Positions 28,500 to 56,946 of a stretch of 64,000 nucleotides of DNA are shown one piece after another. The DNA is taken from the NCBI GenBank assembly GCA_964035545.1, contig OZ037768.1:16599875-16663874 (forward strand), written 5' to 3'. This stretch comes from Bugula neritina (Eukaryota; Animalia; Bryozoa). A program made the translations under genes and the position numbers. How positions within the stretch are numbered: the first letter of the stretch is position 1; each line of letters opens with the position of its first letter. Under the pieces are notes generated by a model, which made no database searches, was not told the DNA's origin, and was given only the letters and a program-made list of their open reading frames with translations.

Positions 28500-29682
<1,183 letters not shown>

Positions 29683-29906
29683 GTATTGACTGCTTAACAC
29701 AAAACAATATTCATTATGAATTATATGGAACAATCTTCTAATTTTCACTGACCTTTTTGTAAGACAAAAGGACAGTATATAATACATTAACAATACACCT
29801 TATCCTTGAGGAACACTCATTAATGGAATGTTTGTTCAAACAATTAGAAGTATCAGGAATGCAAAATAAATAATTTACTGCAAATCAAAGAATTTTATTT
29901 ACGGGC

Positions 29907-30192
<286 letters not shown>

Positions 30193-30401: not shown

Positions 30402-30778
30402 TGTGGTCAAAAAGTCAGGAAAGATCTCCAATCCTCCGGAATACGCATTCCGGAGTTATCTTCTTTTACCTTTATTTTAATTTTTATCGTTTTGCAAAAA
30501 TGTTGATACTGGAAATTTGTTGTCCGAAATTTGGGGTTTCCGAACTTCGGTCTTTTCGAAGTTCAGAACCGCCGATCTTTGGACAACAAAGGATCTTTTG
30601 TGTGTGTCTTTTGATCTGCATGTATAAAAGCAGGCGAGTTCCAGTAGAGATTCAGTCTAGCACTGGAGCTCGCTTGCGAAGACCCGTTTTTTACGCTACT
30701 ATATAAAGACTGATTCTACCTACTACTTCAACACTCCTTGTTTTTGCACTAAGTTACATTCGACCCACAAGTTTATCA
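30402..30778 (+). repeat. Putative 5' LTR of the Gypsy element
   Basis: Starts TGTGGTC, contains TATAAAA at ~30623; ends either GACCCACA (30769) or TATCA (30778), just before the PBS. Boundaries unconfirmed because there is no second LTR. Confidence 0.6.
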
Positions 30779-30781
30779 CTC

Positions 30782-30799
30782 TGGTGGCAGCGGTGGGAT
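30782..30799 (+). promoter_or_regulatory. Primer-binding site complementary to the tRNA-Leu 3' end
   Basis: TGGTGGCAGCGGTGGGAT is the reverse complement of ATCCCACCGCTGCCACCA, the 3' end of metazoan tRNA-Leu(AAG/TAG). Confidence 0.8.
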
Positions 30800-33700
30800 C
30801 TCGAATAACTAAATGCTAAGGAGAACAGGATGGCTCCAGGGGAGGAGGAGAGGACGACTTCTGGAGCATTGGAGACACCAACCCTCACTGTTGAGGCTTT
30901 GGTTACAGCCTTCCAGACATTGCAGGGGAGGAGTCAGGCGCCACCTGGTGACAGGTACCACCTCAAGCCCCGATTTTTGGAGGTGAAGGGGATATCGAGC
31001 AGTTCATCTTTGAGTTTGAAGATGTGGCCACCATTGCTGAATGGCCAGCCCAGGTGCGCATCCTGCAACTCCAGGCCTGTTTGACAGGCCGGGCCAAGAG
31101 TTTTGCTCTAGAACCTGATGAGGCTCACATCCTGCGAGCCCTCAGGACCCGGTTTGGCCTGATGTCTGAAGAGGCTTCGGATCGCCTACAGGCCATGAGA
31201 AGGAACCGAAGTACGTCGCTAGAGTATCACGTGAATGCGGTAGAATGCATAGCTCAGGCTGCTTTCAGCCATGCCATGGGCACAGAGAGGAAACGCCTGG
31301 TATACAACGCGTTTTTCCGGAGTATCAACGATCCTGTTCTGCAACGCTACTGGCTGGCCGCGAAGGTCAGCAGTTTGGAAGAAGCCTATTTTCAGGTAGA
31401 ATGGCTTTAAGTGGCGGGCTTCTTCGTCCACCAGGTGGCCGAAGAGAACAAAAAGGCCGCCACGCCTTCTACTCCACGAGTGTGAGCAGCAACAACCTAG
31501 TTACCAAGCAAGTGCAGCTCACTACGTTGATAGACATGGTAAAGGGTTTGCAGGCTACGGTGACTAAGTTGCAACTATACCAGGCGGATAGGCGGACTCC
31601 CCGATAGAGGGACGACCCTGTCCGTTCCTCCCTGCCCACCTGCTGGAGGTGTGGCACACTGGGGCATGTAAAGAAGGCACTGCCCAAAAGGCCACTGGTC
31701 TTTAAACAGCCGAGGCTCACGATAACTTCCGCCGACCGTGGGCCCCAAGCCAACCCCATTCGGGAGAGGGGTCGGAAGATGACTGAGAGGACCTCTACCG
31801 AACCTGCCGATACCGAGTGGCAGGCACCTCAGAAATTTCGGAGACCAAAAGGTCTACTTGATCCTCCAGCCATGCCAGTCAAAGCCCGGATGGAGTCAGA
31901 AGACAAAGAATGGCAGGCACTTCGGAGATCTCAGAGATTGCAAGGTCTACCCGATCCTCCTGCCTGGCTACTCCGTAACCGGTTCGCTGGGTTGCCCGAG
32001 GAGGTTGTGGAAGACGATTCAGCTTACTCACAAGAGTACCCAAGCCCCCCTCCCAACCTCAGAAAACCCCCATTGTCTCTAAGACAAAGAGGAGGCTCGC
32101 TGTGCAAACTCAAGTTGTGTCTCCCCCAGAGACTAATCGCTCTAGGAGCACCCAACCTTACGGAAGCAGCTACTTCCTGCCTGGAAAAAACTTTGGGTAA
32201 AGCTGCCACATTTTTACTGGACACTGGGTGCACTACAAACCTGCTGAGTAGGCGTCTCTTTGATGCCTTTGGCGCCCGAGAGCCGGCGAGCCTCGAGTCG
32301 TACGAAGGTGCGCATGGTATGGCGGACGAATCATGCATTCCTTTTTACGGCGTCATCACGTTACCTGAACGCGTCCGTGATCAGGTGATTCACGAGACGT
32401 TTATAATCAGCAAGCTGAAGGAGGACACCATCCTGGAGATGCCATTCCTGGAGAAACACCAGTGTCATGAATTTCCAGAAGTCGGCGGTGGTGATGGCTG
32501 GGAAGGAACTGGTCTGTGTTGACAAGTTCGGCCCGCCCTTGGTGGGCAGAGTCCAGATAGTGCGGGACTGCATGGTTCCAGGAAGATCCCAGGCGACTCT
32601 CCGCTGCAGAGTCAACTGTAGGGAGATCGCCGGCCTGGGAGTGATAGAAGAAACGCACGGAGCAATCCGACTGGTAAACACCCTGAATTGGCTAGACTCT
32701 CCGAGAGAACTCCTCGTACAGTGTATCAAGCCTTTCACAGAACCTGTCCGATTATCGGCCGGAGAGCTGGTGGGGAAGTACCACTTCATCCAGGAGGCGA
32801 ATGTGGGTCCAGCAGTGGAAACAGTAACCGACACACAGGGAAACCCCCCATGCACCAGTCAAGGAGCAGTCCCGAAGCATATGGCTGACCTATAAAGTGG
32901 AGCGTGTGGTAACTGTACAAGTAGTACTGAGCGCCAAGTACTGGCTCAACTACTTACGGAGTACAGTTATGTCTTTCGCCGTAGTAATGGAGCCATGTGG
33001 CTGACCAGGATTATCTCCCACGAGATACCCCTGGCAGCTAGCACTACCCCTATCAGGCAGCCAACCCAATGTCTAGGCCCAAAAAAGGAGAATGAGGTTA
33101 GCGGGCAAGTGCAGGATCTTCTCAACCGGGATTTGATTGAGCCTGCCCACGGTGCGTGGAGCTCTCCAGTAGTCCTGGTCAAGAAGAAGGATAGTAGCTG
33201 GAGGTTCTGTGTGGACTACAGCAGACTCAACAGTGTCACCATCCAAGATGCCTACCCTCTCCCACAGATAGATGAGTCTTTGGATGCTCTCACGGGCAAC
33301 ACGTACTTTAGTACTTTGGTTCTGCTTAGTGGGTACTGGCAAGTACCCCTTAGTCTTGATGCCCAGGACAAAGCAGCATTCATTACTCGCAACGTGCTCT
33401 AGAAGTGGAAAGTACTGCCATTTAGACTTACGTCTGCTCTGGCAACTTTCCAACAACTCATGGAGCAGGACCTCAGTGGGCTACACTGGATGACCCTTCT
33501 AATTTATCTGGACGATGTCATTGTTATCTCCCCAGACTTTTCAACTCATGTCAGTCGTCTGCGGGAGATATTTGACCGTCTCCGGGCAGCTGGACTGAAG
33601 TTGAACCTTTTCAAATGTGCGCCCCTGCAGCCGGAGGTCTTGTACCTGGGCCATGTGGTTGGCCGTGATGGGGTCACTACCGACCCGAAAAAGGTACAGG

Positions 33701-36323
33701 CTGCGAAGGAGTGGGTTGTCCCTCGCGACCTCTCTGAGTTACGAGTATTCTTGGGCTTAGTAGAATACTATCGGCAGTATATACCTGGCTTTGCAGGGGT
33801 GGCTCAGCCGATAAATCGGGTTGGCCACAGGAGGAGCAGCAGACATTCGACCACCTCAAGCAACAGCTAATGGAGGCGCCAATCCTGATTTAGCCAAGTG
33901 TGGGAGCTGTTCTGTCCCAAGTCCAGGGTGGAAGTGAGGTGGTTGTGGCTTATTATAGCAAGATTATCGCGGCCGCCGAGAAGAACTACTACACCACTAG
34001 GAAGGAGCTCCAGGCACGAGTCAAGGCGGTCAAGCACTTTTGGCCATATCTGCATGGGAGAACGTTCCTATTGCGAACAGACCATGCATCACTGCTATGG
34101 CTGTGTAAATGTGCAAAGCCTTCGAGCCAGGTAGCTCGTTAGCTAGATATTTTTGCTAAGTTCTCTCACCGGATAGAGCACCATGCTGGCCGGAAGCATG
34201 AGAAGGCTGACGGCATGAGTCGTCGGCTGGTAGAGGACTGAAGCAATGCCTGCACATCGAGAAGCGGAACGGGGGACTCACTAATCTAAGGGAGGGCACC
34301 GTCTATCGGTGAGAGCATGGCCACCTTTGGACCGAAACCCACTCAGACGATGTCCAGGCACTTCGGGCCAACCCCACTCTATATCAAAATGTCAAGGAGC
34401 TGTGCCGACTCTAGGAGGCGCTACCCGGCACTGTAGCGGACATATTCCGGGCCAAGAAAGAGGGCCGACGACCTAGCGAGAATCAGCAGTGGCAGAGAGA
34501 CGTTGAGTTCCAACTCCTCTGTCGTCGTTGGGATTTCCTAAAGGTTAGTCCTGATGGCCTCCTGATGATAACGCTAGCAGCAGACAACCGTCAGCAGGAG
34601 AAAGACCGCGTCATCTGTTCACGCGCCCTCCAACGAGAACTGATTTGGGACACCCATAATCAGGTTCATGCTAAAGCTAGTCAGGTCATCAGGTGTCTGC
34701 AGCTGCGTTGGTACTGGCCCGGAATGACTCAGGATGTACGACTGCCAGTAGGGCAGTGCAAGGTCTGCCAAGCTACTAAGCATGGCTGCCCAACGGAAAT
34801 CACTGGTCGGCGCCGGCTATACGCTGGTCGACCGTGGCAAGCAGTGGCGGTAGACCTCGTTGGACCTATGCCGTTATCCACCAGAGGGAACACCTGGATA
34901 CTAGTGCTCAAGGACCACTATACCCGGTGGGCAAATGCCCCGGCTGTTCTAGATGCATCGGCCCCCACAGTGGCCCAGGCCCTGAACCAAAATGTATTCT
35001 GCTACATAGGGTTACCGGAACAGATACATACGGACCAGGGTGCCCAGTTTCAATTCCAGCTCATGGGGTACCTCTGCCGGATATGGAGGTGAACCAAAGT
35101 CAGACCACCCCATATCACATACAAGAGAACGGAGTCGTCGAGCAGAGTAACCGGATGTTGGGTGATGCCCTCAGAAGCCTGCTCCTCGATTTAGGTCAGG
35201 AAAAATGAGACGTGGTGCTACCACAAATCATGCGGGCCCATCACAGCACACCACACTCCACTACACAGGAGACCCCAAACTTCTTGATGTTAGGCCGGGA
35301 GATGCGAGTTCCGGAACACCTGACATACCATGTTCCAGCCCCCGAGTCTCCAGTACATGAGTACGTGGGGAGACTAATAAAGATTATGGGCAAGGCTCAT
35401 GATGCACTGCGGGCCCAGCAGTGGCAGATTTGCACAGAAAACTCATAAGGGCTCCCCTTGTACTAGGTTGGAGACTGGGTGTGGCTAGTGAGCTATCATA
35501 GGCGGCGCGGACAGTCGGCTAAACCTCAGCTTAAGTTCGTGGGTTTCTACTGCATGGTGGAAGTGCTGCCCAACCACACATATTGTGTGGAGCGTTCTGG
35601 ACAGACTTTGGTTCAGAGCGAGCAGCGCTTAAAGCCATACCATATTAGCCCCAATGCGGTAAGCCAGGCTCCACCCCTCCTGGAGCTCAACCGCCAACCC
35701 AATCATCGGGGGAGAGTAACCCAACTCAGAGAAGTAGAAATATTTGTCTGTAGGAGGCCAGAGCAAGAACAGACTTCTCTGCTAGAGCAGCTGGAACAGC
35801 AGCAGCGAAAAGAGCGGCAGCAGCAACAGACACTAGGGCCAGCACTCCTCTGGGGGAGGACACCCTCACCCGTGTTATGGGTGAAGGCAAGGACCCCCCT
35901 ACCCTGACGGCCGAAGAATCACCAGCAACAGTACTACCAGAGTCAAACCCTCTAGAGAAGCCAGAGAGACAGGAGATCCCTCATATATCTGACAGATTAT
36001 CACGACGGGCACCTAGGGTTACCTCCCGAAGTGGTAATTCATCCAACATGCATAACTATTCTCACTTGGTTGGTAAATTCCTCTAATACCCCGGAAATTT
36101 CCAACAAGCAAAAGAATTTTTAAACCAAATTTCGGAGGGCACGCGATCGTCTGAGTTGTCTCTTCGAAACTTGATGGAAATTTCAGACGATCATGTGATC
36201 GAAGACTCGGCAGGTAGGAGTTTTGAAACACGAGGCTCGGCCATTTTTACTACTGAGGACGCGCGAGTCACACGCAATTTTAAATCTCCAAATTATACTA
36301 AAATTAAAAATAAAATTATCAAA

Positions 36324-37552
36324 ATGGGTATCACTCTTCCTGAGGAGACCACCACACAATCAGGTGTTTCTTTAGAGTCAGATCCTCCGCTATGGGAGTC
36401 TAACCCAACTACTATTAACTGGGCAACACTAGATTCTTTTGAATCTACCTTATTAGAGGAAGATATTGATGTGGGTCTAGGAGATGACTCTCTCCACGAC
36501 TTCTTGCTAGACCAAGACGTGGGGTCAGTCACTCTCTGCAACTCACCTCAACTTCCAATCTTTCATAAAGTGCCATACAAGCAACTGCCAAATTTTGGCG
36601 ATAGCGAGACCGGCCTTACACGGCCTCTGCTACCTGTTTTAGGCACTGACATGGAATGCGATGAGGCGAGTGAGAGTCATGTTGACACCTCCCTCAACCA
36701 GTTTCTGTGACGGCTCTCAGCAGCTCACAGGACGCTACTCACTCTACAGAGGTGCTATCCACCAGCATTAGTAGCTCTGTTGCCAACCCTGTGGAGCTTC
36801 AGCTAGCCGCGAGGGAGGAGCAGCACATACTACTCAGTGAGCCCTCCACTGCTCTGGATGATGAAGAAAACCCTCTGAGACTGGCTCTATCTCAGGCACG
36901 GGTAAATCGCCAGTATTGGGTGTCTCAGGACACCAATCTTAAGATTGGTGAGACATGCGAAGGGTCGGGCAACCGCATCTGCCGCCAGTGTATGAGGAAG
37001 TTCTCCTCTACTCGGCGGCTGCGGGTTCACGCCTCTCAGCACTATGTGAATGTATTCTGCCTGTGTGGCAAATACTCTTATCAGCGCGATTATGTGCTGA
37101 GACATCAGCACATATAGCGCTGCCACATGGGCTATACCTTTGTGGTGGACCAGGTCACTTTCCTGAAGCTATGGGACTTTATCTTGCCGCACGTTGCGGA
37201 CCCCCACAAGCGCGCCACCCTCGGCCAGGGGTTCCCAGCATGCCGTCCGGTACAGGAAGAAGATAGAGAGCTCGCCGCCGCCCTCCAACCAACAGCCACC
37301 CAGCCTCTTCGAGTTGTGCTGGCAAGGGTCGGTGACGGTGCCAGGGCCGGTGCTCTGGACCTGGGCCCCCGACCCTCGGCCGCGGGCAGACAACGAGGAC
37401 TAGAGCGTAGCGCTCCCCACTCACAGCCTCAACCCCGGCTAGAGGAAGAAGTGCGTCACTTGCGACTTCAGCTGCGGCGGTGTGAGGAGGACTTGACGCA
37501 ATTAGGGAGGCTTATCTACTGCCTGGATCGACACCGAGACAACACCCAGTAA
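36324..37552 (+). pseudogene. Extra 3' ORF of the Gypsy element: acidic region + C2H2 finger + atypical second finger + coiled coil
   Basis: Three ORF pieces joined by one frameshift (~36685-36707) and one in-frame TAG (37115-37117). CRQCMRKFSSTRRLRVHASQH, FCLCGKYSYQRDYVLRHQHI*RCH, LEEEVRHLRLQLRRCEEDLTQL. Confidence 0.75.
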
Positions 37553-37713
37553 AGGCAGTTTCTCACATGGCAATGTTGGTGGGGCTGTTTGTAATATGTA
37601 AAGCTGTATTATGCAGACATTATATGCATATATTTATAAACAGTCATAATTGTTAGCCTATCCTTACTGTCAGTTTTTACCTACAAAAGCTGATATTAGC
37701 TTCACTGTTCATC

Positions 37714-38494
37714 AGTAGAGAAGAGAATACAGATAGCAACATATCATCTACTCATACTCCAATTTCTTCCACCTCAGGAAAGTTGATTAGACGTAGGAGG
37801 AGATGTAAATAGTATGTCAAACACATGCACAGCCTCTGTTATAGTTTCTGAAACTTGTTAAGATTGTTAACTACTAAATATAGTCAGCTCGTTTGAAAGA
37901 CAACTCCAATTTCCTTACATGCAATTATCTATCTCTCATAAATAATTAATACCAACAAATTGTTATTATGTGCAACTATGTGTCATTAAATCACCTTTAA
38001 GACTATATTTTTGTTTTTTGTTGTGTTATTAGGAAGTCTCAGAACAAAATATATCTAAGACATGAAAACTTGGTATTCAGAGATGATTGGAAGAGAACTT
38101 AAAGAGAGCAGTGACTGTGAATCTGTGGGCTCAGCTATGCCAGTCTCTCCTTTTGTGTTAAACATAAAAGTCTCAGATGATGAAAAATATGGTTGAATAA
38201 AATCAAGATTGACCAGTTTTATCAAAAGTATTTTATACAAGTTCCTCGATATAACAAAATCCAACTTTTTGGTGGTCTTTCATGCAAGTGGGTGCACTTT
38301 ATGTATTTTTAGCTGCAGAAATGTTAGGAAAAAAGCGTGAAGAAAGCAGTGACTATGAATCTCAAAGCTCAACTATGCCAGTCTCTCATTTTGTGTCAAA
38401 CATAGAAGTCTCAGATGATGAAAAATATGGTTGTATAAAACCAAGATTAACCGGTTTTACCAGACATAACTTAGATCAGCTTTCTTTGGTATAA
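37714..38494 (+). pseudogene. Companion acidic exon family, inverted copy (5'-truncated first exon plus two SSDCES units)
   Basis: Acceptor ttattag|GAAGTCTCAGAAC at ~38031; frameshift and TGA in unit 1; ORF 38282..38494. Confidence 0.65.
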
Positions 38495-38817
38495 CAAAGC
38501 CTATCTCTTTGTAGTGTTTTAAGTGGATACACTTCATGAACTTCAGCTGAAAAGAAAGAACGCTGAATTATTCTACCTGGTTACCATAAGAAATAATTTG
38601 GCAAAAAAGAGAAAGAAGGCAACCAAAACAGACAAATACAGTCACGGCTGAAAAGCAGTGAATTGACATTTTGATCTTCATTCTAGCTAACTAATAAACT
38701 AAGTATTCCAAATGTTAAAGATGAGTTTTCTTCAGACTATTAATATTTATAGAAAATGTTTACTACAGTTAACATGATTTGTATATTTTATATGTCTTGC
38801 TAACTTGACTCAGCAAT

Positions 38818-41800
38818 GGGTCATTCCGCGTCAACTCAACCAATGGCCCACGCCTTTGCGTCTCAGATTTTGTTCATATTTACACCAAATGGACCTACAC
38901 ATGTCTTGAGTGCTATTCTTGAGTATTTCTGGTCTGACACAAAAACCTTTTGAGAAATGAATATTTCCATGAACAAAGGTTGGGAAAAATTTTGGGGAAA
39001 ATTTGCGATTTTTACTTTTAGACCAATTTGTAAACGTCCATATCTCCATTATTTTTCCAGACTGAGCCTTAAAATTTGGTGTGTGATTTGATAACACTTA
39101 TCAATTTGCACTAGTAGTAACACATACTGCAGAATACTTTGTGTGCATATATGCTAAGCCATTGAATATTGGAAAATTTTTATGAATTTTGAAAAATTTC
39201 GAATATTTGCCACATCACAAAAGGCGTTAATTTTTATTTTACTTCCATAAATTTTTATCCATAAATAGTTTATTATGGTTACTTTATACTCCTTAATTTG
39301 TGTAATTTTGAAAATAATATTTTCTGAGATATAGACACCCAAAGTGAAGAAAATGTGAAAATTCGCCTAACTTCACAAGGATGTAACCCGATGTTTGAAT
39401 ACAGTAAAATCTTTCAAACAAGCATTTTCTGTAACATCATTTAGTGTATTTTGTAGATTCATAAATTTCGACGTCCTTATATTGTCCAAACTTGAAGTAA
39501 ATTGCACGGAAAAATGGTATGCGTACGAAAATCGGCAAAATGCAATTTTTCAATATAATATGTTGGGATCATACATTTTTTATTATTCATATTGTTCAAA
39601 ATATCAAGTAGATACATATATGTTTCCTATATATGTCAAATCTACTGAAGATTACGATAAAATCTGATTTGTGTGTAATATCGTAAGAAAAATTCTGCCG
39701 ATCGGCATTATATGATATTCCCATTAGGTTTCAGGTAGCAATTGTTATTTCTGTGAGTGAATGGTGTGAAACAGCTGAAATCTTGCTGAAATCAAGTACA
39801 TTAAGTAGCTGAGACAAGGGTAGCTTCAAAAAACATACCCAAATATAACACCATGGCCCTGAACACAATAGGCCTAATTAATTCGGCGACAGTGGTGTTT
39901 AATACATGCCGGAAATAATTGTGGCTTTTGAAACAGATGTGCCGAAATATAGCAGATTGGTCCGCACCCTAATCAGGTTAATAATTTGCCCAGGCTAAGA
40001 ATAATATTCATCATCCTAAAAAAATCTACAACTTTTTCTTTTAAATGTGGAGAGAATGGTCTTCCAACTTTACCATCTGGTTCAAACAGAATTCCCTTTG
40101 CAGTTTTCTGGCTTGCTGGGCCAGGTAATTGTTTGCTCCAGATTCTATGGCTGTTCTATCGATGGTCCAGCTTTTCGTGCTAATGTCAATAACTGGACCC
40201 TCTCTAGTCACAAGAAAACTTTCGCGTCCTTATTCAAGGATCAAGGATCATCAATTTGTTCAAATCTTTATGATTATTACGCTTCATATAGACATTTGTT
40301 GCTTCTGGGTGGAGTTCTTCTTCATCTATGACAAAGACTGTTTCTACCTTTTCAGTAATGACCTCCTGCAATTTCTTTCGTTTTTTTCCTATAGTTCACT
40401 CTACTGGATGGGCTAATTTTTGCAACTTTCAAGGGAGAAGCTCCCAATTCTGTCATTCTAGTGTTTAGTGTCTGCGCCTCCTTCTCAACTTCAAGAAATG
40501 CATCACTTTCAGTTTCCTGAGAGTATTCTGAGAGCTCATCTTTTTTTAAAGCAATTAATATTGCACAGTTCCTCTCAGTTTCTACAGTTCAATGGAGTAG
40601 AATTATACCAGGAGAGCCCTAAAAATTAGCCCTTCCAGTAAAGTGAACTATGGGGAAAAAAACAGAATCGAGTGGGGGAGGTCATTGCTAAGAAGGTTGC
40701 CACAGTTGCAAGTATAGAGGGAGAGGAACTCCACCCAGAATCAACAAATGCCTATATAAAGCCTAATAATTATAAAGATTTGAACATATTAATATGTCCC
40801 TTGAATAAGGTAAAAGTTTCTTTGGGACAAAAGAAGGTCCAGTTATTGACATTGGCACCAGAAAGCTGGACCATTGATAAGACATCTATAGAATTTGGAG
40901 TAAACAATTATCGTTGTGTTTTAAGTTAGAGAAATAAATATTTATTATGGTAACAGACTGAAGAAATAGCACCGTAAAAAAAGGTTATTTCATGAGTTAC
41001 AAGTTGCCAGTACAAGTGTGAAATGCAAGTCTGGATAAGAGAAAAACTGCTGGGTCTTTATAGTCGTAAAAAGTTAGCTTTTGTGTATTAGCTATAATGA
41101 AAATGGAAAAGCATAATATAGCTGAGATGACATGTGAAAAGCTATCATGTATTAGAAAAAAGCTTTCCCAGCTTATGTATAAACCCAACAATTACCTTGC
41201 ACAGCAAGCCAAAAGACTGCAAAAGGAGTTCTGTCTGAACCAGATACTAAAGTCGGAAGACCATTGCTTCCAGTTATGAAAAAGAGAGTTGTAAATTTTT
41301 TCAGGATGATGAACATTGGACATGGCATGACGCCAATTACTTGATTTTTTAACCAGTACTGACCAAATTAGGGCGAAGTTAGGGCCATTTTGCTATATTT
41401 CGGCACATCTGTTTCAAAAGCCACAATTATTTCCGGCATGTATTAAACACCACTGTCGTCGAATTAATTAGGCCTATTGTGTTCAGGGCCATGGTGTTAT
41501 ATTTGGGTATGTTTTTTGAAGCTACCCTTGCCTCAGCTACTTAATGTACTTGATTCCAGCAAGATTTCAGCTGTTTCACACCATTCACTCACAGAAATAA
41601 CAATTGCTACCTGAAACCTAATAGGAATATCATATAATGCCGATCGGCAGAATTTTTCTTACGATATTACACACAAATCAGATTTTATCGTAATCTTCAG
41701 TAGATTTGACATATATAGGAAACATATATGTATCTACTTGATATTTTGAACAATATTAATAATAAAAAATGTATGATCCCAACATATTATATTGAAAAAT

Positions 41801-42536
41801 TGCATTTTGCCGATTTTCGTACGCATACCATTTTTCCGTGCGATTTACTTCAAGTTTGGACAATATAAGGACGTCGAAATTTATGAATCTACAAAATACA
41901 CTAAATGACGTTACAGAAAATGCTTGTTTGAAAGATTTTACTGTATTCAAACATCGGGTTACATCCTTGTGAAGTTAGGCGAATTTTCACATTTTCTTCA
42001 CTTTAGGTGTCTATATCTCGGAAAATATTATTTTCAAAATTACACAAATTAAGGAGTATAAAGTAACCATAATAAACTATTTATGGATAAAAATTTATGG
42101 AAGTAAAATAAAAATTAACGCCTTTTGTGATGTGGCAAATATTCGAAATTTTTCAAAATTCATAAAAATTTGCCAATATTCAATGGCTTAGCATATATGC
42201 ACACAAAGTATTATGCAGTATGTGTTATTACTAGTGCAAATTGATAGGTGTTATCAAATCGCACACCAAATTTTAAGGCTCAGTCTGGAAAAATAATGGA
42301 GATATGGACGTTTACAAATTGGTCTAAAAGTAAAAATCGCAAATTTTCCTCAAAATTTTTCCCAACCTTTGTTCATGGAAATATTCATTTCTCAAAAAGT
42401 TTTTGTGTCAGGCCAGAAATATTCAAGAATAGCACTCAAGACATGTGTAGGTCCATTTGGTGTAAATATGAACAAAATCTGAGACGCAAAGGCGTGGGAC
42501 TTTCTGAAATTTGGTTGATTTGACACGGAATGACCC
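38818..42536. mobile_element. Non-autonomous DNA transposon, Sola2-like, ~1.14-kb TIRs, 4-bp TSD CAAT
   Basis: GGGTCATTCC...GGAATGACCC termini; CAAT at 38814-38817 and 42537-42540; the empty site in paralogs reads CAGCAATGTT. Arms 38818-~39954 and ~41391-42536 are near-identical inverted copies. Internal fragments KVQLLTLAPESWTIDKTSIEFGV and YLAQQAKRLQKE resemble Sola2 transposase. Confidence 0.85.
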
Positions 42537-43904
42537 CAATGCAAAGTCATGAACCCTTATCTGTTGCACCCCAAAGGTCTACTTTCAGATCACAGATTGA
42601 GTATGAGAGCTCACTGCACTGGCTGTTTTAGCTTCATAGCTTGAGTACACAATATTTCAGCAAAAGTAATAAAGTAGCATGAACATTTTGCAAAACTATC
42701 TTGTGTTTTATATAATTGAAGTATACAAGCAGCTATTTTTTCATCAAAACTGAAATGTGCCAGAAACAATCAGGTTTACTACAGGTTCTATGAAATCTGA
42801 AGAAAATTGCAAGCATATTTCTATTTTTTCTATTTTTAGTGGAATGTTAGAAAAACTAAAATAGTAAAAAATAATAGACATTTTGGAAAATAGTGAGTTA
42901 TTAGAAGGAAATTATTATAACTTTAGAAAAAAAATTATGATATAGCTGATAACATTTACTAACAATACTCTCACAGCTTTTATTTATAGAAGTTCAATTT
43001 CAGGAATTTTAATAGATTATAGAGAACCATTTAACCCTGTTGACCACAAACCTTCATTTTATAATTTAAAAAAAATAATTGCAGTGATGGAACAATAAAA
43101 AGACTCAAAAGCTATCTAATCAACTGTACTCAAGTGACAAAAAATTTAAGAAGATTTCTTTTGGGCATAAACAGTTATTAGTTCGCAGATTTTACAGAGT
43201 CACAATTTAGGAAGTCTAACCCATATATCTATGCAGACGTTACTGGTCGTTTTATAAAACCAAAAGACATAAACATTGTATTCTCAAGATTACCAAAAAT
43301 CGCCAATCATTTTACAAATTTTGAGTAACTAACCAATTGATCACAGACATGCCAACAATTAACTGAAATGAAATGTCCTCAGAATAGAATTAATACAGTT
43401 TTCTTCAAGTAATCTTCTCTTTACTCAATCAAATACTTATAGGTTCTTTTGCACATATTGTACATTGATCTACAATTGTTATTTATACTAACTACATTAT
43501 TTTTATAAAGACTAAAAAGTGTTGTGTTTGAGGGGTTAATATTGAATGTTTATAGTTTTGATTTATCTGCTCACAGAATAAAAATCGCTCACCTGCATTC
43601 TGAAGAGCAAATCGCACAATAAGTAAGTAGCTATACAGTTAAAAAGTATTCAACAGTATAACAAACATAAATTTATGCTATCACTGATCAATCATGCAGC
43701 ATTTGCATGAATATAACTCAGCTGCTTTTTACTGAAAGCTTTTTCAAATATAGCCAACACTACACGGCTGCCGGTAAACGTTATTTACATCATTCATACT
43801 GTGAGCTATTTAGACAAAAAACATAGTAAAATTTATGTAGATTTTATTTTCAATAACTTTTTACTATACTTTTTTGCTCATCAGCTGTGTACAGATCATC
43901 TAGC

Positions 43905-46900
43905 ATGTCGGTTTGTCCACCATGTAAGTATAATAACATTTTGTAAAACCCGATAATTATATGTCAATAATGGAAATGAACTTTTTACAAAATTTGGAGA
44001 CAAGTTTTCATTAAATCTGTTAGTAATTATTAGTATAAGCATTTGATAGGTCTTTCTTTGTTGTGTTGTAGTTATTGAGCATCAAAAGATTCTTGAAACA
44101 CCCAACCACTATGAGCAAGAAACAAGCCATATCTTTGAACATGGCGTATGGCAATATAACACTGGTTTAGTGACTTCAATGACTCCAGATACTCAACACT
44201 TTTTCAGTATGCCAGCTGCAGTACCTGACGCTCACTTATGGGATGATGTTGAGAGGGTAACTCCTGTCACCTTTGAAGACTTCACTCAAAGTTATAATAG
44301 TCTTCCTGTAAACTCAGTCATTTCCTTTCCTACAATCAATTCGGATAATCATATCTCAATCAACACGAAAGCTACAGTATATGACAACTATAATATACCA
44401 GAAGAACCTGATGTTCCTCTGTCTGAAGTTATCTCTGAGGCTTTTCAGGTTTTAGGAATGCATAATGAAGCAGATGGCAGTTCAATAGGTGAGTGTGTTT
44501 AAGTTGATAAAAGCAAAATCATCAAATCTTTCCCTTCACAGACAAAGTAAATTGATCAATCCATGGAATACCGGTGAATCTCTATTCCCGCAGCACCAAC
44601 ACCTGCATTCTTTGTATGCTTAGATCACACGCGTGTACTCTCTGCTTTAGTGATTGTTTAATTGTTAATGCTGAAGTAAGCATAATGCAATCTATATGGC
44701 ATGATTAGATTCACTATGGCATCCGGAGTCGACGTAGTCGGGTTCCCTGAATGCAAATTCGGGAGCTCAACTTTGCTGATTAAACTTTTCTTGAATTTTG
44801 GATGCCCTGAATCATTTCATTTGGTGGGTTCGAGTGTCTGCTGGTTGCCCAATTTGGATGAAGCATTTTACTGATATATAAGTAAGGTCAGATGCCTCAG
44901 CCAGTCAATTAAACTGGAACTGCACCTAGTAATGTTCTATTATCTATACATTTATATGTGACTATAATTGCCTTTTTGCAATTATACTGTTTGAAGAGTC
45001 AAACCTGGGCTCTGTAATAAGCAGATCTGCAGTACATCACAACTGACTGACACTTCCCGTCTTCTTTTTATTTCATTACAAAGAGTTGTTATGTTCTGGG
45101 CAAAGTAATATAAGAACTCTCACAACCCCCACTAGCAATTTTACTCTCTGCAATTCAACTACAATACAAAATTTTGGTGGTGGTAATTCTGAGATTCTAA
45201 GAGATAATTTGCTCCTAAACAAAAGAAGACACAGCAAAGCCTTGGACGGAGGTGATCGCCATATTGCGGCTGAGATGGTTGTTCCCTAGGGCCTAGTAGA
45301 AGAGGAGCAAACTCTACTACAGGCTGCCATCCTGGTCCTCCACATAGGACAGGCTGAATAGGCACTACCTGTCAACTGGCACCATCTTTAGGCTCCGGTC
45401 TTCAGCAGAGAAGGGGGCAGAGAAATTAATTACAGCCTTGAGTAATGTGGCGGCCGTTTCCAAAAATCTCTCTCATGTGGCACTCTTACACCTGTGGTCT
45501 TGTTTAACGTATTGGGCTAAACTCTGCAGGGTAGAAGCCAATGCAGACACTATCTTTGGGTGCTGTGATTCTAGTTTGGAACTGAGGCTCGAACTTAAGG
45601 TGCCTCTACAGAAGCATGCGACCCGGGTGGAGCGGTTGGTCCAGAGTGTTCATAATAATTTTGATAAGGCTAGCAGGAAGATTCTGTTGCTTTCAAAGCA
45701 TTCTTACAGTTATTTAGCAGCCTGGGACTACAGCCCCACGCATTGCAGCTAAGATTGAGACTGGGAAAAGGACTCTTAAATAATGGGAGACATATTTTTG
45801 GCTAGCTGATGTCACAAACAAGCAAACAAACAAACAAACTTGAATGATGCTGCCTGTGACAGCTGTACGAGCACCAAGTAGCACCTGGTGATGGAGCAGG
45901 GGCTAAGACATAGGCCTTACCAAGGTCATCGGCCTAAAAATTCTTCTGGCTGACAAGATGATTTTGAGAAGACAACCGACTCACAGACTGGCTTAGAAGA
46001 AATTGAGCCGTCAGGGGCAACACAGTTTAAACCAGGACCTGATCTGCAATACATAGAGATCTCCAGTTGTTCTGGTCTGGAAAAAGATGGCAGCTGTAGA
46101 TTGTGCAAGAATTGTCGCAAAATTAACAACATGACCATCCAGGATGTTTGCCCCTCTCTCTGGTAAATGAGTCGCCAGATGCCCGGCACATTCTTTAGCT
46201 CATTGGAGCTGCTGAGCGCATACTGGCAAACACCTATCAGTTTTGATGACTAAGAAAAGGCAGCAAAAGGTATTGCAGTTTGAGCTGACATCCATTCTGG
46301 CTACCTCCCAACGACTCACGAAACATCCTCAGAGGTTTACACTAAAAGTCACTGCTCATCTATCTCAAAGATGTCATCGTGACCTCCCCATGCGTCAGCT
46401 TTCCATTTGTCTGCCCCCATCAGGGGGTTAGATGCTGTTATATTTTGATCTTCTAGCTTTATTCTGTGTATATTTACATATTACAAAATTTTATAGTTGT
46501 AAGAAACATAGTGGCAAATTTATCTGACAAATGCACATCGTTTTTGTGTACGAAACTACTAGTAATAAATGCCATTATATTAATCAAATCTCATTTTATT
46601 TCTTCTAATGTCTACGCTCTAGATTTATTTCTATAGAGCACTCTAGTAACGTTTTATAAACACTCATTTTACTATTTTACGCTCCTTTAAGTAGAGCACT
46701 CTATTTATAAACTGCAAAATGGAACAACTAAGATTTGATTATTCAACTATGAATATACCGATTCCATCACAATCACTGTATATACGGAGACTGATCCAAT
46801 ACACAGAATCTTTAGTCATCAGAATGAGATGGGCTGCCTTCTTCTTCCTAAATCCTGACTCTAGATCTAGCATGAAGGAAACTTATGGATTCAGGTCTAA

Positions 46901-49900
46901 AAAGTCCCCACCACAGATCACAGCTATGCAAAGTTTCGAACAAGGATTAGCTGACATGATCCGATCTGTTAAGTTTAGACATGTCCACAATACTTTTCAA
47001 GACAAGCTATCCTCCGACATCAAGCATAAAATAACCATGAGCGACAATATAATAGTGCCTGCAGACAAAAGCAACAATTTCTACAAAATGGACAAAGAAT
47101 CGTATGACAGACTCTTAACTAACAACATCACTAAAACCTATAAGAAAATATCAAATGACAAAGTCTCCAACATCACTAGTGAGAACAAAGCCATGGCTGA
47201 ACAATTGGAACTTGATGACAGAATTACTATAACAGCTAAGAAACCCGCCTTCATTACTATCAAGGATCATAAGGCTAACTACATAACTAACCCCACCTGC
47301 CGCCTTATTAACCCCACTAAACCAGAGATAGGTAGGGTGAGTAAACAACTACTTGACAGAATTAATACATCGATAAACAGCAAACTTGGCCTAAGTCAGT
47401 GGAAAAGCACATCTGCAGTTTTACATTGGTTTGACAATTTGACCACCACAAACAGGCACTCTTTTATCGTGTTCGATATTGTGGAATTTTATCCATCTAT
47501 ATCGCCAAAGCTACTATCTGATGCTCTCGACTTTGCCAACTTGCATACTACAGTCAGCAACCATGAACGGAATATCATATTGCACACAAAAAAATCCATA
47601 TTGGTGCATGACAACTCATTTTGGGGTAAAAGGCAATCAGATAATTTGTTTGACGTCACTATGGGCTCACATGATGGTGCTGAAACATGTGAATTAGTAG
47701 GATTATTTTTGTTAAGTACAATCTCAAAAAAGTTCAAAGCTAACATTGGACTATATCGAGACGATGGGCTAGGTGTAACAGATCTTAAACCACAACTAGC
47801 TGAAAAACTGAAAAAAGATCTTTGCATATTATTCCAGTCACACGGTCTAAAGATCACCATAGATGTAAATATTAAGACAACTGACTATTTAGATGTCACC
47901 CTAGATCTGGTCAAGAAACATCATACACCATACTCCAAGCCCAACAACATCCCTCTGTATGTACACAAAGACTCTAACCATCTTCCCAGCATACTGAAAA
48001 ACATACCAGAATCTATAAACCGCAGACTTTGTGACATATCTACCAATGAAACTATCTTCAACAATGCCACCCCACTATATCAAGATGCTTTGGCTAAAAG
48101 CGGATATGACTACCAACTCAAATACAAAGACTATACTGACAACACCAATACAAGCATCAAACCCATCAGACAAAGACAAGTCATCTGGTACAATCCACCT
48201 TATAGCCGCAATGTAAAGACGAAAATCGGCTCCATATACCTCAAGCTGATAAAAGATATATTCAACACCAAACACCCACTGCACAAAATATTTAATAAAA
48301 ACACACTCAAACTCAGCTACAGTTGCTGCCCAAATTTAGAGCAGACCATCACTGCTCACAACAAAAGTGTTACTAAATGCAACACCACCCCTATATCACA
48401 GGCAGGCTGTAACTGTAGAAATGTAAAGACATGCCCGCTCCCAGGAGAATGCACCACCCCAAACATTGTGTACCAGGCCAAAGTATCCGTCTCATCAAAA
48501 GATACTGCCGAAACATATATAGGAATTTCCTCCACTGCATTCAAGGCAAGATATTACAAATACCTTGCTTCTTTCAGACACCCAACCAAGCGCATGCAAA
48601 CTGAGTTGAGCAAACACATCTGGACCTTAAAAGACAAAGGTCTGGATTTTACCATATCCTGGAAAATTCTCAGAAAAGCTCAACCATACAACAACAACAC
48701 TAAAATCTGTCAGCTATGCTCATGGGAAAAATTTTTCATTCTTTATAAGCCACAGTTGTCTTCCCTCAATAAGCGCTATGACTTTTTATCCATATGCAGA
48801 CATGGTAGTAAATTTTTACTCAAGAATGCTGTAACATAGCCAATTAATTACAATGCTACCTCTTTGTTGTATTTTGATCTTCTAGCTTTAATCTGTGTAT
48901 ATTTACATATTACATTATTTATAGTTGTAAGCAATCATAGTGGCTAATTTATCTGACGAGTGCACATCGTTCTTGTGTACGAAACTACTAGTAATAAATG
49001 CCATTATATTAATCAAATCTCATTTTATTTCTTCTAATGTCTACGCTCTAGATTTATTTCTATAGAGCACTCTAGTAACGTTTTATAAACACTCATTTTA
49101 TTATATATATATATATATATACAGGAGCAAGAGATCCAAATACATGTGTTGTCTTTTTCAACTACAAAAATGAAATTACATAACAGCAACTATTTTATGT
49201 AAAAGTAAAAACTAAAACAATCGTTAAAAAGTTGTAAGTGCTACTTATATTGCTTTTTTGTGTTTTGTAGATGGAGAACAAACTTATTGGAATGAAAGAA
49301 ACACTTTTGATAGTCTGGTGAATCTATTGAGTAAAGGAGCAGATGAATACAACTCCAACAGAATTACAGAAAATCACACTAGTAATAATATGCATGTGAC
49401 TGCAAGTATGCTGCTACATGCATGTAGCATACTTGAAGACTCTTTTGATCAAAAGGAAAATCTAGATATTCCAGCAAGTAATAAAAGTAACCAGGGAAAA
49501 CCTGTACACGATATTGGTGAATATGAATTTACAAATCAAGTTAGTCTTTCTACACCTAGACATTTGCAGGACACCAAAAAGAATGGTTTTCAACGCCTTC
49601 AATGTAATTACAAAACAAAACATGAAAATAGTCTTACCAAACACATGAGAACACACAGAGACAAGAAGCGATATGAATGTAAAGTGTGTGGTCACGCTTC
49701 TAGCCATAAAAGCAGTCTCACAGTGCACATGAGAATACATACTGGGGAGAAACCATTTCAATGTGATCAATGTGACTACAAGACAGCACAGCAAGGTTCT
49801 CTCATGAAACACATAAAAACACATACTGGTGAAAAACCACATGAGTGCAGTGTATGTGAATATAAAACTGGAAACAAAAGTAATCTTAGTCAACACATGA

Positions 49901-50333
49901 GAATACACACTGGAAATAAACTATTCTCATGTAAGTTTTGTAAAAAGAACTTTGCTTCTAAAGGTAACATGAAAACTCACATGAGAACACACACAGGAGA
50001 CAAACCATTTGTTTGTGAAATTTGCGGTTATGCTTCTACTCACAAGAGTCATTTAAACAGACACATGAAAACACACACAGGAGACAAACCATTTGTTTGT
50101 GAAATTTGTGGTTATGCTTCTACTCACAAGAGTCATTTAACAGACACATGAAAACACACACAAGAGACAAACCATTTGCGTGCAGTGTATGCGACTATAA
50201 GGCCAAACAAAAAGTTCATCTTAGCAATCACATTAGAATACATACTGGAGAAAATCCATTCCACTGTAAACTATGCGACTACAAGGCTGCTCGGAAAGTA
50301 TATCTTGTTTCTCACATGAAGAAACACAACTGA
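43905..50333 (+). CDS. C2H2 zinc-finger gene copy E (coding exons 43905-43923, 44072-44488, 49271-50333), 9 fingers; 1-nt deletion at ~50140 in finger 7
   Basis: Same phase-1 exon structure as A and B; 4.8-kb TE-filled intron; finger 1 Cys->Arg; ORFs 49258..50151 and 50106..50333 join across the frameshift. Confidence 0.85.
45990..46330 (+). mobile_element. Heavily decayed Gypsy RT fragment in the intron of copy E (GC-richer remnant probably extends ~45230-46430)
   Basis: Broken motifs KKDGSCRLC...KINNMTIQDV and YWQTPISFDD*EKAA parallel the RT at 33170-33380. Confidence 0.55.
46509..46577 (+). ncRNA. Degenerate hammerhead ribozyme in the 5' terminal repeat
   Basis: Same fold as the 3' copy, but the core reads CTGACAA (G8->A) and the first stem II pair is mismatched. 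Confidence 0.7.
46719..48839 (+). CDS. Penelope-type reverse transcriptase + GIY-YIG endonuclease, intact 706 aa
   Basis: PADKSNN, FDIVEFYPSI, MGSHDGAE, YRDDG, YLDVTL; linker CNCRNVKTCPLPGEC; NIVYQ...TYIG...FKARY; CQLC...CRH. Confidence 0.93.
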   Translation: MEQLRFDYSTMNIPIPSQSLYIRRLIQYTESLVIRMRWAAFFFLNPDSRSSMKETYGFRSKKSPPQITAMQSFEQGLADMIRSVKFRHVHNTFQDKLSSDIKHKITMSDNIIVPADKSNNFYKMDKESYDRLLTNNITKTYKKISNDKVSNITSENKAMAEQLELDDRITITAKKPAFITIKDHKANYITNPTCRLINPTKPEIGRVSKQLLDRINTSINSKLGLSQWKSTSAVLHWFDNLTTTNRHSFIVFDIVEFYPSISPKLLSDALDFANLHTTVSNHERNIILHTKKSILVHDNSFWGKRQSDNLFDVTMGSHDGAETCELVGLFLLSTISKKFKANIGLYRDDGLGVTDLKPQLAEKLKKDLCILFQSHGLKITIDVNIKTTDYLDVTLDLVKKHHTPYSKPNNIPLYVHKDSNHLPSILKNIPESINRRLCDISTNETIFNNATPLYQDALAKSGYDYQLKYKDYTDNTNTSIKPIRQRQVIWYNPPYSRNVKTKIGSIYLKLIKDIFNTKHPLHKIFNKNTLKLSYSCCPNLEQTITAHNKSVTKCNTTPISQAGCNCRNVKTCPLPGECTTPNIVYQAKVSVSSKDTAETYIGISSTAFKARYYKYLASFRHPTKRMQTELSKHIWTLKDKGLDFTISWKILRKAQPYNNNTKICQLCSWEKFFILYKPQLSSLNKRYDFLSICRHGSKFLLKNAVT
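48938..49006 (+). ncRNA. Type I minimal hammerhead ribozyme in the 3' terminal repeat
   Basis: Stem I ATTTAT/ATAAAT extended by TAGTGGC/GCCATTA; core CTGACGA; stem II GTGCACA/TGTGTAC; GAAA; 3-bp stem III ACT/AGT; cleavage triplet GTA ending at 48993. Confidence 0.88.
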
Positions 50334-51984: not shown

Positions 51985-52545
51985 TGCGGTGTCCGAGATA
52001 TCTGAGGTGCCTGCCACTCTACATCAAAAGTTCCATCCGTGTTTTCCTTGGCATTGTCTGTACCTCCTCCTGGATGGGGTTGGCGGAAGTTACCGCAGGC
52101 CGTGGGTGTTTAAAGACTGTCTCGGTTTACGTGTCCCTCAGACTCGCATTCCCCCAGCAAGTAAGGTGTAGAGGCTTGGCAGGATCGTCCCGTGTTTGAG
52201 AAGCTCGTCTGCCAGCCTGATTTTCTTGTACTTTCTCTAAGTCAGCTTGCAGGTCTTTCACAATATCCAGTAACATGGAAAACTTGGTGGGGCCGGTGTG
52301 GCTATGGTAGCGGCTGCTACTTGAGACACTGGTGGGGCAGGCGATGTCGCCACCTGTTCATCTGCTTCCAACTGGTATGCAGTAAAACCCGCTCATTATA
52401 GTTGCGTAATTACTCACTGTAGTGCACCCGATTCGATTTTCATAATAGTATACATAATGTTCCCTCATTGAAGAGGATGCTCAACACACCGTTAGATAGA
52501 GAAGCCTATATGAGCTAAGCCTCCGGCAACCACCCATTACTCAAA
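51985..52545 (-). mobile_element. Diverged gag fragment related to the Gypsy element at 30.4-37.5 kb
   Basis: Reverse complement shares GGGACGA(T/C)CCTG, GTCTTTAAACA, TAACTTCCGCC and GCCAACCCCAT with 31600-31760; LLDIVKDLQA vs LIDMVKGLQA. Confidence 0.75.
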
Positions 52546-55500: not shown

Positions 55501-55764
55501 TGTATGTTGTTACTATTCAGGTTATTCTTCATGCTGATTGTAGAGATATCTTAGCCTTGGCTATAGATAAAATACTGTTTCTTCTTATAGCGGCTAGGGT
55601 ATCTATAGTCTATTTTAACTTTGCTCTTGGCAACTGTGCAGTGATTGTAGAGATAGTGGATGCTCTCGGATACAACTGCTTGCACTTTCTTAAAAAGTGA
55701 AATAACTGGGTAGTGAAAGTGGTTCATTGAGCTTGATGAGTTGATTGTGGAAATACTTTTATAT

Positions 55765-56520
55765 ACTCGGTGTACAAGTAAGTATACTTAGTATAAGAGT
55801 AAGTATATTATACTCAGTGTAGGAGTAAGTATACTATACTCAGTGTATATGTAAGTATACTTAGTGTAGGAGTAAGTATATTATACCCAGTGTATATGTA
55901 AGTATACTTAGTGTAGGAGTAAGTATATTATACTCAGTGTATATGTAAGTATACTTAGTGTAGGAGTAAGTATATTATACTCAGTGTATATGTAAGTATA
56001 CTTAGTGTAGGAGTAAGTATATTATACTCAGTGTATATGTAAGTATACTTAGTGTAGGAGTAAGTATATTATACTCAGTGTATATGTAAGTATACTTAGT
56101 GTAGGAGTAAGTATATTATACTCAGTGTAGAAGTAAGTATATTATACTCAGTGTAGGAGTAAGTATACTATACTCAGTGTATATGTAAGTATACTTAGTG
56201 TAGGAGTAAGTATATTATACCCAGTGTATATGTAAGTATACTTAGTGTAGGAGTAAGTATATTATACTCAGTGTATATGTAAGTATACTTAGTGTAGGAG
56301 TAAGTATATTATACTCAGTGTATATGTAAGTATACTTAGTGTAGGAGTAAGTATATTATACTCAGTGTATATGTAAGTATACTTAGTGTAGGAGTAAGTA
56401 TATTATACTCAGTGTATATGTAAGTATACTTAGTGTAGGAGTAAGTATATTATACTCAGTGTAGAAGTAAGTATATTATACTCAGTGTAGGAGTGAGTGC
56501 ATAAATACTGAGTGTGCAGG
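55765..56520. repeat. Minisatellite of 21- and 26-bp monomers (47-bp dimer) with a 334-bp higher-order period
   Basis: TATACTCAGTGTATATGTAAG + TATACTTAGTGTAGGAGTAAGTATAT; diagnostic variants recur 334 bp apart. Confidence 0.93.
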
Positions 56521-56946
56521 AATGTAGCTATACTTAGTGCACAGGTGAATTCTTTGTAGTTTTCATTCTATGTGTAATCCACAAAAGAGTAGAAATTGAA
56601 AATTGTCTGTTGATTATTGTGCAAGATTAATTTGCTTGCTGTAAACCTTTTCACTGCTGCGTTTAAAAAAATATTATAGATACTTTATTAAAAAAGAATA
56701 TATTATTGCAAGTATATTTATTACATAAAATAAAAATATAATGTTTGTATATGTGCCTGTATTGTAACTGTTATTCAGCGTTTACACATTTATTTAATTC
56801 AAACTATATAAAGTTGAAGTTCAATTGTTAGTTATTTATAGTGTTAAAGTTGCTCTGATGGCTTTATCATTTCAATTGTCAATGACGTACACATGTGTTG
56901 TTTTAGGCTTCTTCAAAGAGGGTTTAAAATAATTGAGTTATAAAGT

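Follow-up and report, generated by a model that had tools for sequence, protein, structure and literature searches.

Non-env third open reading frames (ORFs) are already known in Gypsy retrotransposons, and few of them have a tested role. Bdelloid elements carry third ORFs of the env, GDSL, DEDDy, CC and TM types (PMC5408684), Tor of Oikopleura has an env gene with an internal promoter (PMC4402516), and plant elements have additional 3′ ORFs between pol and the 3′ long terminal repeat (LTR), such as gene23 of Grande (PMC7264820). Foamy viruses, which have two promoters, one of them internal, carry a non-structural gene close to the 3′ LTR (PMC7828637, PMC4402516). Here we describe a zinc-finger gene, ORF3, in a Gypsy element of the bryozoan Bugula neritina, found in a stretch of 64,000 nucleotides (nt) that was analysed as a whole and is called the window (assembly GCA_964035545.1, contig OZ037768.1, positions 16,599,875 to 16,663,874). 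ORF3 shares its place between pol and the 3′ LTR with errantivirus env, bdelloid ORF3, Tor env and the plant extra ORFs, some of which come with a promoter of their own or a product that is nuclear. In contrast, no sense-strand double zinc finger is described in the accessible parts of the papers on the bdelloid, Tor and plant ORFs (PMC5408684, PMC4402516, PMC7264820), and no transmembrane (TM), fusion or enzyme domain was recognised in ORF3. A search of the open-access literature, which left Repbase and subscription journals uncovered, turned up no Gypsy element whose ORF3 has a double zinc finger. We regard this conserved accessory gene with an unnamed double-finger domain as a new form of third ORF.

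ORF3 runs from an ATG at 36324 to a TAA at 37552 (1229 nt, about 410 codons). A sequence-only reading of the window had described such an ORF after integrase and an AT-richer spacer, with one frameshift and one TAG, and it was seen as claimed; its acidic block, C2H2 finger, CxC finger, FVVD...LPHV block and C-terminal heptads were all present.

36324..37552, + strand: ORF3, a non-env zinc-finger protein gene, with a frameshift near 36690 and a TAG stop at 37115-37117
36420..36581, + strand: acidic-hydrophobic block with a VPYK motif, candidate activation domain
36887..37252, + strand: conserved core of about 120 residues, two fingers predicted to be wrapped by flanking helices
36980-37042, + strand: finger 1, C2H2
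37058-37123, + strand: finger 2, CxC-x12-H-x5-C
37439..37525, + strand: predicted C-terminal coiled coil, with a basic patch before the coil

The atypical CxC finger exists, with the correction that its last ligand is the Cys of the 'CH' pair (92% conserved) and not the His (46%). The GC content over the three ORF3 pieces (0.47, 0.53 and 0.62) is like that of gag-pol (0.52-0.55), as had been noticed, while the spacer at 36030-36323 has 0.38. The frame itself is not intact in the window, where the frameshift and the stop break it.

The 3′ part of ORF3 has 18 homologues at E<=0.01 (best 3e-100, 40-66% identity), and by sequence comparison this similarity is beyond chance. An alignment-based search gave 53 homologues, and a profile search covering 1.84 billion representative proteins gave 263 matches at E<=0.001 and 118 at 1e-10, the best 150 of the 263 being listed. 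One homologue, P0009, led to a complete element, L001, which is about 75% identical to the window in pol and has LTRs at 4185-4581 and 11160-11557 (86.7% identical), a 4-bp target-site duplication (ATGT), a primer-binding site (PBS) as well as a polypurine tract (PPT). The gene for P0009 lies at 10001-10993, 3′ of pol and of an AT-richer spacer and 5′ of the PPT, within the LTR pair. Since the window has no second (3′) LTR, the location of the ORF inside an LTR pair is shown on this relative, not in the window, and rests on one complete element. L002 is a shorter piece carrying the same ORF3 gene. Locus scans of metagenome contigs, viral contigs and prokaryote genomes gave no confirmed relatives. 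Within the family, P0006, P0110 and P0126 form a subfamily without the acidic block, in which the start region joins directly to the linker before the core, and two tandem copies of the core domain are found in P0058/P0188, P0075 and P0192. The most distant matches are tied to an element solely through the tail of P0183. Outside the element, L001 has a second gene of 330 residues (11639-12631), which matched neither Pfam nor the core profile.

Compared between the window and L001, a single pair of decayed copies aligned by tblastn, the ORF3 core has a dN/dS of 0.25 (121 codons; pN/pS 0.40, bootstrap 0.29-0.54), with 27, 29 and 59 differences at the first, second and third codon positions. This value below 1, which the sequence-only reading had named as a check, is comparable to those of reverse transcriptase (RT, 0.26) and integrase (0.22); RNase H has 0.28, the protease region 0.49, the acidic-hydrophobic N-terminal block 0.44 (74 codons) and the whole 3′ part of ORF3 0.37 (273 codons), while the gag comparison was saturated. 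By these sequence measures ORF3 is under purifying selection equal to that on pol, and it is almost certainly an integral, selected gene of this Gypsy lineage.

Conservation of the core was counted in 93 aligned rows, picked for covering the core. The eight zinc ligands, C-x2-C-x12-H-x3-H and C-x-C-x12-H-x5-C, are 92-100% conserved, and so are a W..T...I motif before the fingers and a VD...F motif after them. Finger 1 fits the classical C2H2 pattern (ligands 97-100%, F 67%, L 87%); helix residues matching R45, R46 and K48 are Lys or Arg in 77-84% of the rows, and in finger 2 D70 is kept in 75% and position 74 is Lys or Arg in 74%. No Pfam family covers the core domain. Finger 1 stays below the Pfam gathering score (PF13894 with 14.2 bits in the window against a cut-off of 27, which was reached by 1 of 17 others), and PF00096 matched 5 of 18 homologues, with a best E of 0.027. 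The best matches of a sequence-profile search were SALL3/4 (E 3e-5 to 2e-3), for finger 1 only.

AlphaFold2 folded the 125-residue L001 core as one domain (pLDDT 95.3, pTM 0.87), and in the model of a 226-residue homologue the core is followed by a disordered stretch and then by a 39-residue helix. When the core was compared with known structures by VIA-align, the ten best rows were all multi-finger C2H2 DNA-binding domains with both fingers superposed (50-57 residues at 2.2-3.9 Å, Z 3.2-4.0), Kaiso being the best; the 226-residue model matched coiled coils only. Kaiso/ZBTB33 (5vmu) superposes with both fingers over 57 residues at 2.5 Å (Z 4.0), SALL4 ZFC4 (7y3k) over 51 residues at 2.5 Å (Z 3.5) and ZBTB20 (9kh2) over 50 residues at 2.2 Å (Z 3.4), all with Z below the level that the tool calls meaningful. 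The ORF3 core differs from these fingers in its five-residue non-TGEKP linker, YVNVF, in its CxC..H..C second finger and in its unmatched flanking helices. We describe the core, on the strength of models, as a predicted compact domain with tandem-finger geometry. A Krüppel-type array of many zinc fingers would have TGEKP linkers, which ORF3 lacks; ESM Atlas returned unnamed or generic C2H2 clusters (0.93-0.95, fewer than 170 shared features), with structure rows under the naming bar; and DUF5810, its rank 1, received no support from the other matches.

On either side of the core, the N-terminal part is net acidic in 34 of 38 fetched proteins and the C-terminal part net basic in 65 of 73, with an Arg-rich patch before the coil in many homologues. 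Scored ad hoc for heptads, 36 of 73 tails (35 near the C-end) reached at least 0.7, against 2.4 expected from shuffles, in a count where two-domain proteins and isoforms enter repeatedly and proline-containing windows are left out. Modelled as a parallel homodimer, the C-terminal helix scored 0.45, compared with 0.00 for the best control; the runs agreed in at least 93% of contacts, with a pLDDT of 74. Of solved homodimers, 21 of 30 microbial and 17 of 29 eukaryotic ones attained the dimer mark, as against 0 of 23 and 0 of 30 single chains, respectively. The transcription-factor-like architecture first suggested for the window copy is thus borne out across the family by zinc ligands, core model, acidic N-part, basic C-part and heptads, and the ORF3 product is probably a DNA-binding dimer. 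A bZIP protein was considered and rejected, since prolines part the basic patch from the coil, no Asn stands before the coil, and AP-1 and C/EBP profiles matched only at E 1.1-8.9. The maximum 19-residue hydropathy is 0.44-1.07 in the ORF3 pieces of the window and 0.54-0.96 in 8 homologues, which leaves no signal peptide or TM anchor; together with the absence of any env match in Pfam, this agrees with the claim that ORF3 is not env. No viral fusion glycoprotein family of Pfam was found in 18 members and no such Foldseek match at E<=0.001, which is not an exclusion.

The spacer before ORF3 was confirmed to be AT-richer and about 300 bp long; the view of it as a mere spacer has to be amended, in that five homologues continue the frame of the pol tail through it without a stop, while in the window copy this frame is broken. 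Its features are as follows.

36030..36323, + strand: AT-richer, CpG-retaining spacer, candidate internal promoter; frame broken in the window by a stop at 36084-36086 and a frame change near 36030
36125..36135, + strand: 11-mer CCAAATTTCGG, candidate binding site, identical in the window LTR (30524-30534, minus strand) and in the L001 5′ LTR
36210..36247, + strand: block retained in divergent copies, with GGCCATTTT (36239-36247) at its end; same motif in L001 at 9710

The observed/expected (o/e) ratio of CpG in the spacer is 1.38 in the window and 1.14 in L001, compared with 0.55-0.68 and 0.60 in gag-pol, and the spacer resembles the LTRs in this respect. Divergent contigs of three runs, which are contigs of unknown kind, share the conserved block with loose ends at 36210 and 36245-36246, and their flanks differ. 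GGCCATTT, at the end of this block, is present in both the window and L001 spacers, and we take the GGCCATTTT/GGCCATTT motif to be YY1-like. Because the spacer is CpG-rich and keeps this presumably YY1-like motif, its sequence suggests an internal promoter. The window spacer has 16 8-mers in common with the window LTR, compared with 6.4 for shuffles (0 of 300 shuffles), and 16 with the L001 LTR, compared with 6.5 (5 of 300). TTYGAA sites, though present in both spacers, are found in other parts of the elements as well and were not relied on. The residue after the start Met is Gly, Glu or Asp, each with a codon that begins with G (background 0.28), in 25 of 25 proteins, whose start Mets were placed by eye and which are not independent.

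From sequence and models we propose, tentatively and with slightly less than even confidence, that the ORF3 product is a dimeric regulator which binds DNA in the nucleus and would promote transcription from the promoters of its own element. A subgenomic mRNA would be made from the CpG-rich internal promoter in the spacer and translated from the conserved Met, the fingers would bind a site common to the LTR and the spacer, and the acidic block would recruit co-activators, so that a positive feedback like that of foamy-virus Tas would result; a Pol-linked form of ORF3 may be made as well. Tas activates both the LTR and the internal promoters of foamy viruses. It resembles ORF3 in being a non-structural gene near the 3′ LTR, and its way of acting, with an internal promoter, is the one proposed here. 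However, foamy viruses are retroviruses with env, whereas ORF3 has zinc fingers and a coiled coil, and the two are likened by layout, not by sequence or fold. That ORF3 activates its own element is, taken by itself, nearly an evenly balanced matter with doubt a little ahead; if true, a retrotransposon of an invertebrate would, by encoding its own transcription factor, reach the level of regulation seen in complex retroviruses.

Several observations weigh against this activator reading. The proposed check by AlphaFold and Foldseek succeeded only in its first half: the core folds confidently as one domain, but Foldseek gave nothing at E<=0.001 for both models in BFVD and PDB. The VIA matches are weak (Z<=4.0), with none at 5 or above among 48,161 chains. 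The flanking helices may hide the fingers or point them elsewhere, RNA and protein are also among the targets of C2H2 fingers, and the pass of the coiled-coil dimer may reflect likeness to solved coils. The 11-mer is absent from the L001 spacer, with which neither LTR shares 8-mers in excess (222 and 107 of 300 shuffles); equally high CpG peaks are found within pol (1.26 at 32200; 1.09 and 1.17 in L001). The single decayed pair behind the dN/dS values belongs here too, and the frame left open behind the pol tail is as compatible with a fusion as with a stand-alone gene.

This open frame was found in five proteins from four subfamilies among 200 fetched (P0020, P0021, P0110, P0126 and P0183), which are stop-free from the integrase-tail motif through 84-165 spacer codons into ORF3; most others start further downstream and are uninformative here. 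A spacer free of stops is expected by chance, per frame at spacer composition, at 4e-3 to 1e-5, and P0021 is collinear with window positions 35956-36030, 36009-36656 and 36764-37510. Since the first 160 residues of the extensions hold 0-1 Trp, they are not an artefact of TGA read-through. We take the tail motif to be the end of Pol, in the integrase frame, and since the frame is open in several subfamilies, a Pol-linked form may also be made. ORF3 could then be mainly a C-terminal extension of Pol, with linker-tethered fingers that would steer the pre-integration complex to particular DNA or chromatin sites, the part that the chromodomain plays in chromoviruses. Chromoviruses (chromodomain Ty3/gypsy elements) have a chromatin- or DNA-reading module C-terminal to integrase (PMC13524379), and ORF3 would be alike if the Pol-ORF3 frame is used. 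Unlike theirs, the module here is about 410 residues long, with an acidic block, a dimerisation coil and an internal start, and a chromodomain was rejected for it, with no Pfam match for 35467-35904 or ORF3. Other results argue against the extension as the main form. No fused protein of 708-2020 residues was found, in a search that is weak by the tool's own note; a contig over 35764-36245, possibly decayed, puts integrase and tail in different frames by a net difference in length; the 19 listed spacer substitutions, spread 7/8/4 over codon positions 1/2/3, show no constraint on amino acids (40 of 96 rows listed); 8 extended proteins have a Met 23-34 residues past the conserved motif; and bryozoan proteins use the domain without Pol. 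We regard it as unlikely that ORF3 is mainly such an extension, while a Pol-tethered module and a self-regulator are compatible with each other.

Another possibility is modelled on CERV of the Caenorhabditis elegans element Cer1, an experimentally solved animal Gypsy regulator. In this case ORF3 would bind unspliced genomic RNA (gRNA) by its fingers or basic patch, multimerise by its coil and license nuclear export in a Rev- or CERV-like manner. CERV acts in this way and is Gypsy-encoded like ORF3 and nuclear, with a leucine zipper, a basic candidate nuclear localization signal and a Cys-rich region (PMC10309623); the Arg-rich patch seen before the coil in many ORF3 homologues would suit the same role. 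The same account gives CERV splicing onto gag exons, a G-protein-like domain and no obvious homologues outside nematodes (PMC10309623), whereas ORF3, compared by description, has a C2H2 plus C2HC core and its own conserved Met. In addition, the ORF3 core resembles tandem DNA-binding fingers and its acidic-hydrophobic N-block is conserved, and the export role appears quite unlikely.

ORF3 might also bind DNA as a repressor, as a copy-number control factor, or as a modifier of host genes or of the silencing machinery. The architecture evidence is the same as for an activator, and since bryozoan proteins annotated as host genes share both the domain and a terminal coil, the domain can serve outside the element. 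On the other hand, acidic-hydrophobic tracts usually activate, and the motif common to the window LTR and spacer points to the element itself, which leaves these roles decidedly improbable. The last alternative, that ORF3 is a separate insertion, a neutrally decaying captured fragment or a diverged env, could appeal to the broken window copy without a 3′ LTR and to the single complete element, but it is largely refuted and highly improbable, given that L001 has ORF3 at the same place within its LTR pair, the core dN/dS is 0.25, five proteins have the pol tail and ORF3 in one open frame, hydropathy shows no TM segment, and neighbouring zinc-finger (ZNF) genes of the TGEKP type reach just domain E>=0.004 with the core profile, compared with 4e-30 for ORF3, in line with the earlier statement that it was not captured from them.

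Look-ups of 30 proteins gave 5 clusters with named members, and every one of these was bryozoan. These are core-domain proteins of Watersipora subatra (XP_067944745, XP_067940964/3) and of Bugula neritina (KAF6040922, KAF6040923, KAF6037488). Three proteins, P0156, P0189 and P0192, share an extra unnamed N-terminal block (E 1e-10 to 1e-11) across two bryozoan genera, which was found in no other fetched protein, and their sequences suggest a host gene family. A core-domain tree was built by a quick search from 118 rows and 125 columns, and 17 of its 109 branches were starred; it favours neither host nor element as the first bearer of the domain. The presence of the domain in bryozoan proteins with host-gene annotations makes capture from a host gene other than the neighbouring ZNF genes possible, and these relatives are a test case for the exchange of DNA-binding domains between elements and hosts. 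In its widest form, the proposal would be that the members of an old, large animal Gypsy lineage code for a sequence-specific transcription factor of their own, whose double-finger fold is undescribed and which is made both alone, from an internal promoter, and as an in-frame Pol tail, and that the module passed into bryozoan host genes; as a whole we hold this to be unlikely. If true, expression and insertion site would both be under the control of a single DNA-reading module. Because the core is small, well predicted and present in many divergent relatives, its DNA target is accessible to routine assays and can be compared with the LTR of each family.

The element itself starts at 30402 and is GC-rich in a window of about 30% GC; a TG...CA LTR and a PBS are followed by gag, protease, RT, RNase H and integrase.

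30402..30778, + strand: 5′ LTR, TG...CA, CpG o/e 1.09, with short similarity to both L001 LTRs
30782..30799, + strand: PBS TGGTGGCAGCGGTGGGAT, with a near-identical site in L001 at 4583-4600
30809..31700, + strand: decayed gag region, its 5′ limit approximate, PF00098 at E 0.068, below cut-off; degenerate zinc knuckle near 31640
31700..36030, + strand: decayed pol, with protease PF13650 (E 0.0012), RT PF00078, RNase H PF17917 and integrase PF17921 and PF00665
near 35956-36030, + strand: R..PP.YL.DY-type tail, after a low-complexity linker that follows integrase

By Pfam, the order of protease, RT, RNase H and integrase at 31608-35089 is as in Ty3/Gypsy pol. We presume the PBS to be of the tRNA-Leu type; no tRNA gene was found in the window. 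Between protease and RT, a segment of about 150 residues (32419-32895) is 44% identical between the window and L001 and has no Pfam match; it is possibly a degenerate dUTPase-like domain. The 3′ end of the element is lost in the window, where no second (3′) LTR was found, the sequence from 37711 on is a host repeat family, and the window copy of the element is dead. A contig of run X1 is identical to the window over 36129-37750, and this run is possibly the window's own source.

Two more Gypsy remnants were found in the window, an RT fragment at 46056-46390 (+) and a piece at 51987-52192 (-) that resembles the gag-protease linker of the ORF3-bearing element. Just upstream of the LTR is an (AT)n tract at 29905-30190, and a (GT)n tract of 1.2 kb is at 28500-29680. 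TGEKP-type ZNF genes are located at 4864-5881, 8735-8061 and 49228-50330; large segmental duplications in both orientations, covering 1-28000, 37711-38800 and 42700-50330 and carrying such genes, mark an expanding ZNF cluster. An inverted repeat of 1122 nt (38842-39963 and 41382-42503; 98% complementary, 1418 nt apart) is likely a young foldback or DNA transposon, and a tandem array of 47-bp units extends over 55642-56604.

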